A DNA stretch of 64,000 nucleotides from a virus, in the IMG/VR virus record IMGVR_UViG_3300020205_005279, positions 25,051 to 89,050 of that record; one strand, written 5' to 3'. The notes below the pieces were generated by a model, which was not told the origin of the DNA, searched no databases, and worked only from the letters and a program-made list of their open reading frames with translations. Below, piece after piece: positions 60,828 to 63,984 of the stretch (position 1 is its first letter; every line of letters begins with the position of its first letter). The position numbers and the translations under genes are program-made.

Positions 60828-60899
60828 TGGGCGATACTGGACTCGAACCAGTGACTTACCACTTGTAAGGAGGCCACTCTACCGCTGAGTTAATCGCCC
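60828..60899 (-). tRNA. trnV: tRNA-Val(TAC)
   Basis: Cloverleaf, loop CTTACAA. Confidence 0.92.
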
Positions 60900-60921
60900 G
60901 GGGGATAACTTTAAACTTGAA

Positions 60922-61002
60922 TGCACGGAAGAGGACTTGAACCTCCATGCTGTTAAGCGGTAGCTTCTAAGGCTACTGTGTCTACCTTTCCACCACCCGT
61001 GC
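60922..61002 (-). tRNA. trnL: tRNA-Leu(TAG)
   Basis: GTAGC-CTTAGAA-GCTAC, long variable arm. Confidence 0.9.
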
Positions 61003-61455
61003 TAGAGGTGTTCTATTAGAGAACGTGGGCGTTTGAGAGTGGCAATTAGGGCATAAAAGCCTTAAATTGTCAACAGTGTTATTATAACATTGACCATCTA
61101 TATGGTCAACTTGTAGTCTTAAAAATTTACCGTTCCACTCGGAAGAAATGCCGCACTGTTCGCATTGTTCCCCGCTCTCTTGAACAAGAAGCCTATAAAT
61201 AACGCTTCTTTTACAGTTTTTACCTTTAGTTAGAACGTACTCTTGTAATGTAGGCCATTTGTTTCTCCCACCAAAATTTCTTATTTTGGCAGTATAATCA
61301 GGTCTATAGTTCGGAATCCACTTAGAAGTTCTGCGTCTAAGAGTGTCTGGTCGGCAATTTAACTCTAGACATAATTCTGTAGGAGTTTTGCTTCCAGATA
61401 GCAGACTATTTATTATATAGTCTTTTTTGTTGTCAATGTCCTTTCGCACTCTCAT
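60982..61455 (-). CDS. HNH homing endonuclease
   Basis: CEQCG...LQVDHIDG..NN...NLRLLCPNCHSQT; N-terminal HTH-like segment. Confidence 0.92.
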   Translation of the reverse strand: MRVRKDIDNKKDYIINSLLSGSKTPTELCLELNCRPDTLRRRTSKWIPNYRPDYTAKIRNFGGRNKWPTLQEYVLTKGKNCKRSVIYRLLVQESGEQCEQCGISSEWNGKFLRLQVDHIDGQCYNNTVDNLRLLCPNCHSQTPTFSNRTPLARVVER

Positions 61456-61489
61456 AATGGTAGACTTTATAGTCTATAAACTATTTAGT

Positions 61490-61510
61490 TACCAATTCCG
61501 CCATTTGCGC
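61490..61510 (-). pseudogene. Orphan 5' fragment of a tRNA-Leu-type gene
   Basis: GCGCAAA-TG-GCGGAATTGGTA (acceptor 5' strand plus D-arm) stops abruptly before the HNH leader. Confidence 0.7.
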
Positions 61511-61513
61511 ATA

Positions 61514-61586
61514 TGCTCCTTGTGAGGATCGAACTCACCTCACACGAATTATGAGTTCGTTGCATTCACCAGATTGCTAAAAGAGC
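61514..61586 (-). tRNA. tRNA-Met/Ile2(CAT)
   Basis: ACGAA-CTCATAA-TTCGT; no initiator features. Confidence 0.9.
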
Positions 61587-61589
61587 ATA

Positions 61590-61760
61590 ACGATGGACTT
61601 ATCCGTATGCTATGTGGGCGCTACACCCAGTATACTGACAGTTTCCAACGGAGTAGGACGCAGTACCACCGCGAACATCCAAAGGGGGCTGATTCCAAAC
61701 TATGTGGTTTCAGTATATCTGAACCGTTTGGCACCTTTGCCTGGAACGTCTCAAGTTCCT
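61590..61760 (-). ncRNA. Structured RNA, manA-motif-like
   Basis: GGAAC/GTTCC, TATACTGA/TCAGTATA, AACGG/CCGTT, TGGGTG/CGCCCA helices; TATAAT at 61775-61770 upstream; family call from recollection only. Confidence 0.55.
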
Positions 61761-61827
61761 AATACAACTATTATACTCCCTAAATGGCCTAAATGTACAC
61801 AATGTCTTTAGAGGACTTTTTGCCCTC

Positions 61828-62271
61828 TCATCGGCCCCGGGTGTTTCCTGGGATCTGCGGTGCGGGGTGGTGGGTTGGTGAGAAAAACTGACTAATGGGC
61901 CTTGCTTCGCCTATAATAAACCCGGCCGCTAATATAACCCCTGCAACAAGCCATCTCAATCGCGATAGTTCTCCGATGCGCTTGTCGTGGTCCTTGAGCA
62001 CCTCCTCAATCTCCTTAATTGAGTCGGCGTTTTGTTTTTTCATTTCATCAAGGAGCTTAATTATAGCAACGTCGGATTGTATGGCTTGTTCTAAACGTTC
62101 GTCGTGGCGGACGAGTATTTTTGAGATGTTTTGATTTGCTTCCGATATTTTATCTACAGCCAACTCAAGCTTTAAAAGCATTTCTTTTGTGAGTTCTTCA
62201 TAGACCATGAGTTTTTCTCCCAACACGGCCACTTGTATGTCCGGGCTTTGGGGGGTAAAAGGATTAGTCAT
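61828..62271 (-). CDS. Coiled-coil protein with C-terminal TM helix (cyanophage-type)
   Basis: VAVLGEK...LVRHDERL...RWLVAGVILAAGFII. Confidence 0.75.
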   Translation of the reverse strand: MTNPFTPQSPDIQVAVLGEKLMVYEELTKEMLLKLELAVDKISEANQNISKILVRHDERLEQAIQSDVAIIKLLDEMKKQNADSIKEIEEVLKDHDKRIGELSRLRWLVAGVILAAGFIIGEARPISQFFSPTHHPAPQIPGNTRGR

Positions 62272-62312
62272 TTGGTAATTAGTAATGCTCTTTATGGATG
62301 TCTTTCAACTAA

Positions 62313-62386
62313 AGCCTCCTGTCGGACTCGAACCGACGACCTACGGTTTACAAAACCGTTGCTCTATCCAGCTGAGCTAAGGAGGC
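62313..62386 (-). tRNA. trnT: tRNA-Thr(TGT)
   Basis: ACGGT-TTTGTAA-ACCGT. Confidence 0.95.
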
Positions 62387-62388
62387 GG

Positions 62389-62461
62389 GGTGTACGAGCG
62401 GACTTGAACCGCCATAAACCAGTTCCACAAACTGGTGCATTAACCATTATGCTACGTACAC
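62389..62461 (-). tRNA. trnH: tRNA-His(GTG)
   Basis: CCAGT-TTGTGGA-ACTGG, C73. Confidence 0.92.
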
Positions 62462-62462
62462 A

Positions 62463-62534
62463 TGGCAGTAATGAGATTTGAACTCATAATTCCGTCGTTA
62501 TGAATGACGGGCTTTACCATTAAGCTATACTGCC
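62463..62534 (-). tRNA. tRNA-Met/Ile2(CAT)
   Basis: CGTCA-TTCATAA-CGACG, acceptor GGCAGTA/TACTGCC. Confidence 0.88.
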
Positions 62535-62537
62535 GAG

Positions 62538-62627
62538 CGGAAGTGGTTGGATTTGAACCAACGGTGCCGGGATAACCGACACGGAATCTTAGCAGGATTC
62601 TGCGATAAACCACTCTGCCACACTTCC
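62538..62627 (-). tRNA. trnS: tRNA-Ser(GCT)
   Basis: GAATC-CTGCTAA-GATTC, long variable arm. Confidence 0.93.
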
Positions 62628-62645
62628 ATTTTGCCTTTCGGCAAG

Positions 62646-62719
62646 CGCTCTCTGAGAGATTTGAACTCCCGACACCCTGGTCCGTAGCCAGGTGCTCTAG
62701 TCCGCTGAGCTAAGAGAGC
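62646..62719 (-). tRNA. trnR: tRNA-Arg(ACG)
   Basis: CCTGG-CTACGGA-CCAGG. Confidence 0.94.
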
Positions 62720-62736
62720 AATTTGCCCGAAGGCAA

Positions 62737-62808
62737 TAGTCCATACGGGATTTGAACCCGTGCTGCCACCTTGAAAGGGTGGTGACCTGCCCGCTAGTCG
62801 AATGGACC
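62737..62808 (-). tRNA. trnE: tRNA-Glu(TTC)
   Basis: CCACC-CTTTCAA-GGTGG. Confidence 0.93.
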
Positions 62809-62831
62809 GTTATGGTTTGCCCTTTGGGCAA

Positions 62832-62902
62832 TTCCGAGACTAGGACTCGAACCTAGGATAGCGGGACCAAAACCCGCTGCCTTACCACTTGGCTATCTCG
62901 GA
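62832..62902 (-). tRNA. trnQ: tRNA-Gln(TTG)
   Basis: GCGGG-TTTTGGT-CCCGC. Confidence 0.94.
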
Positions 62903-62924
62903 AAAAATGCCTCTGATGAGGCGA

Positions 62925-62997
62925 TTGGAACGACGAGACTTGAACTCGTGACCGCACGGTTATCAGCCGTGTGCTCTACCAACTGAGCTACGTTCCA
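62925..62997 (-). tRNA. trnI: tRNA-Ile(GAT)
   Basis: CACGG-CTGATAA-CCGTG. Confidence 0.95.
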
Positions 62998-63001
62998 GAG
63001 G

Positions 63002-63074
63002 TGGGAACAGTCGGAATCGAACCGACAACACCACGATCTTCAATCGTGTGCTCTACCGTTGGAGCTATGTTCCC
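63002..63074 (-). tRNA. trnF: tRNA-Phe(GAA)
   Basis: CACGA-TTGAAGA-TCGTG. Confidence 0.94.
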
Positions 63075-63150
63075 TGGCGTCTCAGGTAGGATTCAAACCT
63101 ACGACCGACCGCTTAGAAGGCGGTTGCTCTGTTCGCTGAGCTACTGAGAC
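63075..63150 (-). tRNA. trnR: tRNA-Arg(TCT), encoded CCA
   Basis: ACCGC-CTTCTAA-GCGGT; atypical D- and T-loops. Confidence 0.9.
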
Positions 63151-63153
63151 ATA

Positions 63154-63245
63154 TACGCCGTGCCGGAATCGAACCGACTATCTTACGGATTACGTGGTAA
63201 TCCAGCTCCATTGTCTGGGTGTCCTTACCAATAGACTACCGGCGC
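63154..63245 (-). ncRNA. Aberrant tRNA-like RNA
   Basis: Acceptor, D-arm and T-arm present; non-canonical anticodon arm plus an extra 7-bp arm. Confidence 0.65.
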
Positions 63246-63248
63246 GGG

Positions 63249-63380
63249 CGAGGGTATCCACCTACAATGTGCGAGTTACTTGGCATTTTGTTTAAATCCA
63301 GACAACTTAGTTGAACTGAATCTAAACTCCATTATCTAAGCACTTTCGCCATTCTATGATGTGGTTTAGGGGACCCTTCG
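63249..63380 (-). ncRNA. Rod-like structured RNA, abiF-motif-like
   Basis: Closing CGA(A)GGGT/ACCCTCG, inner GCGA/TCGC, 12-bp GTTTAGATTCAG/CTGGATTTAAAC; family call from recollection only. Confidence 0.5.
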
Positions 63381-63457
63381 TTTAAGCCCCCGTTCCTTGG
63401 AGGACCCTTGGTGGCCACCGGCACTCCAGATTATCAGCTCTGGCGCAAAGTGGCAAG

Positions 63458-63529
63458 TCGGGGTGGGAGGGATCGAACCTCCGACATCCTGCTCCCAAAG
63501 CAGGCGCGCTACCGCTGCGCTACACCCCG
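63458..63529 (-). tRNA. trnP: tRNA-Pro(TGG)
   Basis: CCTGC-TTTGGGA-GCAGG. Confidence 0.96.
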
Positions 63530-63531
63530 AG

Positions 63532-63912
63532 ATGCCCCGATTTTACACGTGAAACGTCTCAAGGACGGACAGAGGTGGGGGCTTGCTTTCAGCAGGGCCT
63601 GCATATTGGCCGGTAAGAGCGTTCGCTCCAGCAACACCAATGGCAAAACAGCCCTCAAGAAAGCACCACATATTAACGCCTGTGTTCGTGGCCGTGGCGG
63701 GAACTTAACGACGTATTCCATACGACTCCGGAGTCTAGAACGGAGAGTTTGTGGTGAGGCAACAGTTAAAGACTGCTGACAACCTTGACTCTATTAAAGC
63801 CAAGGGCCTCTCACAATATGCCAGGTTTCAATTTTTATCACCCAGGATTATGGAAACCTGTAAGACGGCATCCTGGGATTTTGGGTTTAGGAGTTAAGAA
63901 CTCCGCACCCCA
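63532..63912 (-). ncRNA. Large ornate ncRNA candidate (~380 nt), compact GOLLD-like
   Basis: Two interleaved perfect 8-bp helices (pseudoknot) and multi-branch junctions; lies between two tRNAs; no convincing ORF. Confidence 0.6.
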
Positions 63913-63984
63913 CTGGCCCGGCAGGGATCGAACCTGCGACAACTTGATTAACAGTCAAGCGTTCTACCGCTGAACTACAGGCCA
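63913..63984 (-). tRNA. trnN: tRNA-Asn(GTT)
   Basis: CTTGA-CTGTTAA-TCAAG. Confidence 0.95.

Follow-up and report, generated by a model that had tools for sequence, protein, structure and literature searches.

What fills the gaps in a phage array of transfer RNA (tRNA) genes, and could it leave the transcript as RNA in its own right? The question is raised by the array at positions 60828–63984 of a 64,000-nucleotide (nt) stretch of IMG/VR virus record IMGVR_UViG_3300020205_005279, referred to here as the window. The window is the final 64 kilobases (kb) of a single contig of 89,050 base pairs (bp), with the array at the very end of the contig. All coordinates are those of the window, and the whole array lies on the minus strand, with transcription running from 63984 to 60828. 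The array belongs to a freshwater cyanophage whose family A polymerase is gamma-like, as in the S-TIM5 group. A first-pass annotation had described 15 same-strand tRNAs with mostly short spacers, interleaved with structured non-tRNA elements. Both observations hold: Rfam and ARAGORN recover the same 15 tRNAs on the minus strand, 11 of the 15 gaps measure at most 22 nt, and the structured elements comprise E1, a 41-nt hairpin with E2, a tRNA look-alike, E3 and four spacer hairpins.

Judged from sequence comparison, the array contains at least four conserved, folded non-tRNA RNA families flush against tRNA ends. In the sequences compared, related phages keep, lose and reshuffle these predicted RNA modules, each of which fills its inter-tRNA space almost exactly. 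Apart from the 5′ half of E1, every module has counterparts in other viral contigs that show compensatory base changes. We consider it probable that the modules are released as discrete small RNAs by tRNA processing and that they most likely act in trans. The non-tRNA elements, in transcription order, are as follows.

63530–63912, minus strand: E1, 383 nt, between tRNA-Asn and tRNA-Pro
63749–63912, minus strand: E1a, the 5′ 164 nt of E1, a weakly supported module
63530–63748, minus strand: E1b, the 3′ 219 nt of E1, a conserved structured module directly 5′ of tRNA-Pro
63414–63454, minus strand: 41-nt hairpin module with loop GCUGAUAA, preceding E2
63246–63412, minus strand: E2, a conserved structured RNA
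63154–63245, minus strand: tRNA look-alike, 92 nt, an odd tRNA-His(atg) called by ARAGORN in addition to the 15 tRNAs
62904–62924, minus strand: spacer with hairpin GCCTC-ATCA-GAGGC (62909–62922) followed by ATTTTTT, terminator-like; 1 of 2000 shuffles as stable
62809–62830, minus strand: hairpin (T)TGCCC-AAA-GGGCA(A); 2 of 2000 shuffles as stable
62720–62736, minus strand: hairpin TTGCC-TTCG-GGCAA; 2 of 2000 shuffles as stable
62628–62644, minus strand: hairpin TTGCC-GAAA-GGCAA; 0 of 2000 shuffles as stable
61588–61762, minus strand: E3, a conserved structured RNA ending at the 5′ end of tRNA-Met

E3, a predicted RNA family between changing tRNAs

The elements recur in other cyanophage arrays: the E3 core pattern matches at least 120 IMG/VR contigs, and homologues of the look-alike and E2 are found in S-CREM1. 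By blastn, an E3 core of ~165 nt is present at 71–91% identity in 29 phage records. Its hosts are T4-like Kyanoviridae (S-PRM1, S-T4, S-SM2, S-CAM9, S-N03, Syn1 and S-RIM44), Aurunvirus (S-TIM5 and S-TIM54) and the siphovirus S-SKS1. A same-strand tRNA lies on each side of 92 copies, and the flanking pairs vary (Met-Leu, Asn-Val, Asn-Thr, Arg-Thr, Gly-Val, Thr-Pro and others). As an inter-tRNA spacer, E3 ranges from 135 to 203 nt across copies. In almost all of the 73 distinct tRNA-flanked copies, the first helix begins 1–3 nt past the upstream tRNA and the last helix ends 2–5 nt before the next.

The 5′ domain of E3 occurs in two types, A (GGAAC-UUGAGAC-GUUCC), which includes the window copy, and B, found for example in S-SKS1. 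Common to both are a hairpin in which C-G, G-C and G-U pairs replace one another and, on the 3′ side, a domain built of four stacked helices. Across the 73 distinct sequences, pairing is retained in 97.4% of cells and nine pairs are changed on both sides (131 cells). None of 500 shuffles reaches the observed value, and slid controls give 26–52%. Several G-U pairs are invariant or frequent, as at columns 131/188 (73 of 73), and would pair only on the tRNA strand, which is therefore the folded strand. A pseudoknot between the first hairpin loop (GAG-N) and a conserved N′-CUCC is tentatively proposed; its fourth pair covaries only in type B (C-G 12, U-A 3, U-G 8) and is A-A in type A, window included.

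Searching 185,579 bacterial and archaeal genomes with the E3 pattern returned 23 matches, a single one of them real, on an 878-nt fragment of a metagenome-assembled genome; E3 is therefore viral rather than a copied host RNA. Rfam searches of the window at E ≤ 5 and of five E3-bearing phage loci at E ≤ 1 returned nothing for E3. Its suggested resemblance to manA did not survive this search, as RF01745 matched neither the window nor these loci at those thresholds; the S-CREM1 control, at 96.6 bits, is a different sequence.

Within the window, the 5′ end of E3 faces a promoter-like site instead of a tRNA, and E3 is missing from those arrays of close relatives that were sampled. Here E3 looks like an acquired cassette. 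GenBank records leave E3 unannotated or draw dubious hypothetical proteins over it. In S-TIM5, Syn1 and S-SM2, coding sequences labelled 'hypothetical protein' span E3 together with adjacent tRNAs, on either strand; such proteins drawn across these spacers are probably mis-annotations. Clustering of the open reading frames (ORFs) neighbouring 130 E3 loci gave no universal protein partner. At 54 of the 130 loci (for example L080), E3 and tRNA-Leu(TAA) are closely followed by a small ORF cluster. The ORF appears, on reading, to resemble a gene labelled 'Phd-like antitoxin' in S-SM2 and 'plasmid stability protein' in S-TIM5. The association may reflect only the shared ancestry of those T4-like phages.

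E2, its companion hairpin and the tRNA look-alike

Together, the 41-nt hairpin and E2 fill positions 63246–63456 between tRNA-Pro and the look-alike. The E2 pattern finds S-CREM1 and 11 IMG/VR loci, comprising 10 distinct sequences. Minimal E2 is 85 nt long and is closed by a GGG/CCC stem. It also has a hairpin whose AAGGAAC loop is invariant, a stretch of conserved sequence (UUAAACGAAG), two helices (AG(R)GU/AC(Y)CU and CCAC/GUGG) and a symmetric internal loop, CGUAG/CGUAG. Its terminal stem tolerates insertions, the largest of which is in the window copy. Pairing is retained in 99.5% of cells with six pairs changed on both sides, which none of 500 shuffles reaches. The single-sequence fold of the E2 spacer (z = −2.27) is not decisive, and Rfam at E ≤ 5 returned nothing for E2. 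The 41-nt hairpin recurs behind tRNA-Asp in the relatives L131, L140 and L141, with a compensatory change of A-U to G-C.

The look-alike is represented by six distinct copies (the window, L132, L136, L138, S-CREM1 and S-PM2), the S-PM2 copy lying unannotated between tRNA-Thr and tRNA-Ala. Across the six, acceptor stems are paired at 6–7 of 7 positions and T stems at 5 of 5, both covarying, and the D arm is normal. The anticodon arm is replaced in every copy by a 3-bp stem (CCA/UGG, CCC/GGG or GCA/UGC) and a GACAA loop without U33; none of the six has the 5-bp anticodon stem and 7-nt loop with U33 of a tRNA. The window copy carries an extra 20-nt hairpin, GGAUUAC-CAC-GUAAUCC. RF00005 matches neither the window copy (E ≤ 5) nor the S-PM2 copy; the insertion-free L138 copy scores 34.4 bits. 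The only Rfam match at this site, Plastid-ycf2 at 17.6 bits, is on the opposite strand, and both it and a YrlA match were rejected as weak echoes of tRNAs. Two relatives (the L131 1859 region and L141) have the look-alike cleanly deleted with the two acceptor strands fused (GCCGGCGTATAT), and it is therefore dispensable. Aberrant tRNA-like modules not called by ARAGORN are also seen in the Lys→Met and Glu→Ser spacers of L138 and the Asn→Pro spacer of L131, some with two T-arm-like hairpins in one acceptor stem.

Spacer hairpins and the two halves of E1

Four of the five 17–22-nt spacers are almost exactly one hairpin, each matched in stability by no more than 2 of 2000 shuffled versions of itself. 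A TTGCC/GGCAA stem is common to three of these hairpins, with GAAA, UUCG and AAA loops. TTGCC-GAAA-GGCAA is also found behind tRNA-Arg(ACG) in L140, where the 16-nt spacer equals the first 16 of the window's 17 nt.

The pseudoknot proposed for E1a stands in part. Its two interleaved 8-bp helices, CCCAGGAT/ATCCTGGG and CAGGTTTC/GAAACCTG, are truly complementary in sequence and would form an H-type pseudoknot, but the sole homologue found by exact-pattern scan, L131, offers one compensatory change (A-U to U-A) and one mismatch. Ten IMG/VR contigs from the same phage group contain E1b, which lies directly upstream of tRNA-Pro in 8 of the 9 contigs examined. Exceptions to this context are L137, with tRNA-Arg(CCT) before tRNA-Pro, and L167, which shows no downstream tRNA. 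Pairing in E1b is retained in 98.1% of cells and both partners have changed in five pairs, a result that none of 500 shuffles reaches. Its compensatory sets include CGCC/GGCG, CGAC/GUCG and CGAA/UUCG, and CGUC/GACG, CGGU/GCCG and CGUU/AACG. Support for E1b is weaker than for E3 and E2. The single-sequence fold of E1 is not decisive (z = −1.96), and E1 has no Rfam match at E ≤ 5 and no blastn match among cultured phages. An E1b copy in L167 (3546–3771) has a (CA)n microsatellite expansion in the loop region.

The canonical tRNAs

All 15 canonical tRNAs look functional, have a 7-nt anticodon loop and score 48–73.3 bits against RF00005, exceeding its gathering score of 29 bits; anticodons are from ARAGORN. 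They are listed in transcription order, each called by both ARAGORN and Rfam.

63913–63984, minus strand: tRNA-Asn (GTT), 70.4 bits in Rfam, first gene before the contig end
63457–63529, minus strand: tRNA-Pro (TGG)
63075–63150, minus strand: tRNA-Arg (TCT), CCA encoded
63000–63074, minus strand: tRNA-Phe (GAA)
62925–62997, minus strand: tRNA-Ile (GAT)
62831–62903, minus strand: tRNA-Gln (TTG)
62737–62808, minus strand: tRNA-Glu (TTC)
62645–62719, minus strand: tRNA-Arg (ACG)
62537–62627, minus strand: tRNA-Ser (GCT)
62463–62534, minus strand: tRNA with CAT anticodon
62387–62461, minus strand: tRNA-His (GTG)
62313–62386, minus strand: tRNA-Thr (TGT)
61513–61587, minus strand: tRNA with CAT anticodon (the tRNA-Met beside E3), 53 bits in Rfam
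60922–61002, minus strand: tRNA-Leu (TAG)
60828–60899, minus strand: tRNA-Val (TAC), last array gene, after an unstructured 22-nt spacer

The gaps, in the same order, measure 383, 211, 3, 0, 2, 21, 22, 17, 17, 2, 1, 0, 725, 510 and 22 nt. Only tRNA-Arg (TCT) has an encoded CCA. The contig stops 16 nt past tRNA-Asn (63985–64000), where the plus strand has nine consecutive G residues. The order Asn-[spacer]-Pro-(Ala)-E2-(look-alike)-Arg-Phe-Ile is common to the relatives, which have extra upstream tRNAs (Gly, Lys, Tyr and Asp). Because the contig ends so close to tRNA-Asn and the relatives carry more tRNAs upstream, the array is probably cut by assembly. ARAGORN found no transfer-messenger RNA, standard or permuted, in the genome or its relatives. 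A search of sequencing runs listed no RNA run containing the sequence; the best-matching DNA run is a freshwater metagenome, and near-identical E3 and E1 DNA is present in other aquatic metagenomes (contigs of three DNA runs).

Protein genes and promoter-like sites

The first-pass annotation had cast the array as a polycistronic, RNA-only module. 'RNA-only' is wrong, because the two long gaps are mostly protein genes, and a single polycistron is unlikely given a promoter-like site just before E3 and a hairpin with T6 inside the array.

61828–62271, minus strand: DUF7201 gene, 147 amino acids (aa), coiled-coil, with a hydrophobic C-terminal segment (PF23831, 92 bits; phrog_451)
61770–61799, minus strand: promoter-like TGTACA-18-TATAAT (consensus scan, 10 of 12 matches)
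60982–61455, minus strand: HNH endonuclease gene, 157 aa (PF01844, 27.5 bits, cut-off 21.4; phrog_10822, 92.7 bits)

The DUF7201 gene fills most of the 725-nt gap, and a homologous ORF lies at the same place in L140. The HNH gene fills most of the 510-nt gap and overlaps tRNA-Leu by 21 nt at its 3′ end. Upstream of E3, the −10 box of the promoter-like site ends 7 nt before the first E3 base. The description of elements abutting tRNA ends thus holds for the modules, but not for these two mostly coding gaps or for the 5′ end of E3 in this window.

The region's best promoter-like match (61081–61109, minus strand; 11 of 12), TTGACC-17-TATAAT preceded by TG, lies inside the HNH gene and, as a consensus match, could drive tRNA-Leu, tRNA-Val and a CP12-like ORF separately. 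This 50-aa ORF (60651–60803, minus strand), which comes directly after the array, resembles CP12 only over that protein's C-terminal 20 residues (22.2 bits, cut-off 22.7) and has a terminator-like hairpin behind it (60621–60634). The 899-aa DNA polymerase (56367–59066, minus strand) combines a mitochondrial-type exonuclease domain (PF18136, 177.5 bits) with a family A domain (PF00476), a gamma-like type known from the S-TIM5 group. The phage also encodes DenV.

Proposed release of the modules and competing explanations

The cleavage specificities of ribonuclease P (RNase P) and RNase Z are established. In the mechanism that we propose, the array would be transcribed from at least two starts, together with the DUF7201 gene and the gene for the HNH endonuclease, an enzyme of homing type. 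Host RNase P, cutting at tRNA 5′ ends, would form the 3′ end of the module upstream, and RNase Z, cutting after the discriminator base, would form the 5′ end of the module downstream. The 5′ end of E3 in this window would instead be set by transcription initiation. As the tRNAs are almost all CCA-less, the two cuts would release each spacer; from this and the geometry of the array, we infer on good grounds that the modules would be freed. They would then exist as discrete small RNAs, like RNAC and RNAD of the T4 tRNA cluster, and would most likely target some factor of the host or the phage in trans. That E3, E2 and the hairpins fit their spacers almost exactly beside changing tRNAs is what is expected of modules selected for release.

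Several points weigh against this reading. The E3 alignment was gathered by sequence pattern, and columns under the pattern are invariant by construction; the E3 covariation stems from columns outside it. The minimum free energy of E3 alone is no better than that of its own shuffles (z = −0.53), so that the case for E3 rests on comparison. E1a is represented by two sequences, and the structure used to test E1b was partly hand-picked from the same eight closely related sequences. Both the promoter and the terminator are consensus matches only. The trans-acting role is itself a guess, because nothing points to a particular target. Our ranking nevertheless places trans-acting small RNAs first, followed by purely cis processing elements, functionless tRNA debris and small proteins.

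A wider interpretation is tentative, and we would not expect it to hold in full. It treats such arrays as launch pads from which shuffled trans-acting RNAs would be released by the host's tRNA-processing enzymes, with the look-alike as a decoy for tRNA-targeting defence nucleases and E3, which only viruses carry and which persists across myovirus, siphovirus and S-TIM5-like lineages, as a sponge or ribozyme directed against a conserved picocyanobacterial factor. For the look-alike, the favoured guess is that it serves as a decoy or in anti-defence; counter-defence by the array RNAs, which had been proposed at the outset, is speculation.

The modules might instead work only in cis, as leaders, insulators or processing and stability elements that aid tRNA folding, guide RNase P, RNase Z or RNase E or attenuate transcription, and become waste after cleavage. 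The short hairpins sit in their 17–22-nt spacers much as trailers would, one has a terminator-like T6 tail, and E3 is here the promoter-proximal leader of a tRNA. However, six array gaps measure 0–3 nt, so tRNAs evidently mature without such an element. E3 keeps its sequence and fold beside at least eight tRNA species and across unrelated phage groups, and the multi-helix architecture of E2 and E3, 85–200 nt with conserved unpaired stretches, exceeds what an insulator needs. We regard a purely cis role as unlikely.

Less likely again, the modules would be tRNA genes in decay and scars left by mobile DNA, which recombination and a homing endonuclease have spread and which have no function as RNA. 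The look-alike is clearly tRNA-derived and is cleanly lost from two relatives, other relatives hold aberrant spacers with doubled T arms, and an HNH gene lies inside the array, all as this explanation would have it. It does not account for compensatory changes that keep helices on the transcribed strand, or for invariant G-U pairs that are strand-specific. E3 and E2 have no tRNA features, and E3 retains 71–91% identity between phages with nothing else but tRNAs in common over a 3.4-kb region.

That the long spacers partly encode small proteins is highly improbable: open frames do exist (42 and 70 aa in E1, 37 aa in E3), one of them (MEYVVKFP...) being open in the window, L131, L132 and L140, but substitutions in E1b are spread evenly over codon positions (9/6/12 and 8/7/9), the MEYVVKFP... 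frame is broken by indels in L137 and in the window has lost its stop and runs into tRNA-Pro, helices in the same stretch show compensatory changes, and the GenBank 'hypothetical proteins' annotated at E3 are found on one strand or the other and overlap tRNAs.

Comparison with known systems

The proposed release of modules by tRNA processing recalls mitochondrial tRNA punctuation, reportedly described by Ojala, Montoya and Attardi in 1981, in which RNase P and RNase Z free the genes that lie between tRNAs. The array likewise has two mRNAs with tRNAs on either side. Unlike the mitochondrial case, most products would be small non-coding RNAs, the array has one or more internal promoter-like sites, and processing is predicted from the layout of the genes.

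GOLLD and ROOL RNAs occur near phage tRNA islands and their function is unknown (PMC5737381, PMC12286853). The resemblance of E1 to GOLLD put forward in the first-pass annotation was rejected, with no Rfam match to GOLLD or ROOL at E ≤ 5; those RNAs measure about 600–800 nt and form nanocages, whereas E1 is 383 nt long and modular. Within incomplete literature coverage, no published description of E2, E3 or the look-alike came to light; they may be present, unnamed, among the 10,006 viral candidate RNAs of one catalogue (PMC10690425).

S-CREM1 (OP535465.1, 9745–10643) has the order wcaG, tRNA-Met, look-alike, E2, tRNA-Leu, manA, tRNA-Asn, abiF and tRNA-Gly. The same architecture therefore also hosts catalogued RNAs: manA (RF01745) and abiF (RF03085) are exact inter-tRNA spacers there, and manA, catalogued as a possible riboswitch, is thus tRNA-flanked in at least one phage. 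The S-CREM1 island holds three Rfam RNAs (wcaG, manA and abiF) and two unannotated modules homologous to the window look-alike and E2. In the window itself, abiF RNA has no match at E ≤ 5 (S-CREM1 control, 52.2 bits); the relative L138 has a sub-threshold match of 27.3 bits.

In T4, segB sits within the tRNA cluster, and the window array holds an HNH gene. The T4 homing endonuclease SegB is reported to amplify anti-defence loci, evading a tRNA-cleaving defence (PMC13096335). The T4 cluster also contains RNAC (species 1) and RNAD (species 2), which, like the modules predicted here, are small RNAs other than tRNAs that a phage encodes within its tRNA cluster and on the same strand as the tRNAs. 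They share a transcript with the tRNAs, and recent work still gives their function as unknown (PMC3014915, PMC9697503); both are assigned to the late RNAs, and a Northern blot with an RNAC probe served as validation (PMC9697503). Accumulation and processing are demonstrated for RNAC and RNAD, whereas the window elements are predicted from sequence and have no detectable sequence similarity to them. Among 50,697 phage records, blastn of E3, E2 with the look-alike, and E1 returned only cyanophages or nothing, and no homology to T4 rnaC or rnaD.

If true, the launch-pad interpretation would provide the first functional handle on the RNAC/RNAD question. The presence of E3 in more than 100 viral contigs and in cultured phage–host pairs makes tractable systems available, such as Synechococcus WH7803 or WH8102 with S-PRM1, S-T4, S-TIM5 or Syn1. 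T4 has two RNA families, whereas at least four are predicted here, shuffled among many phage lineages, and cyanophages appear to have expanded the T4-like arrangement into several conserved modular RNA families.

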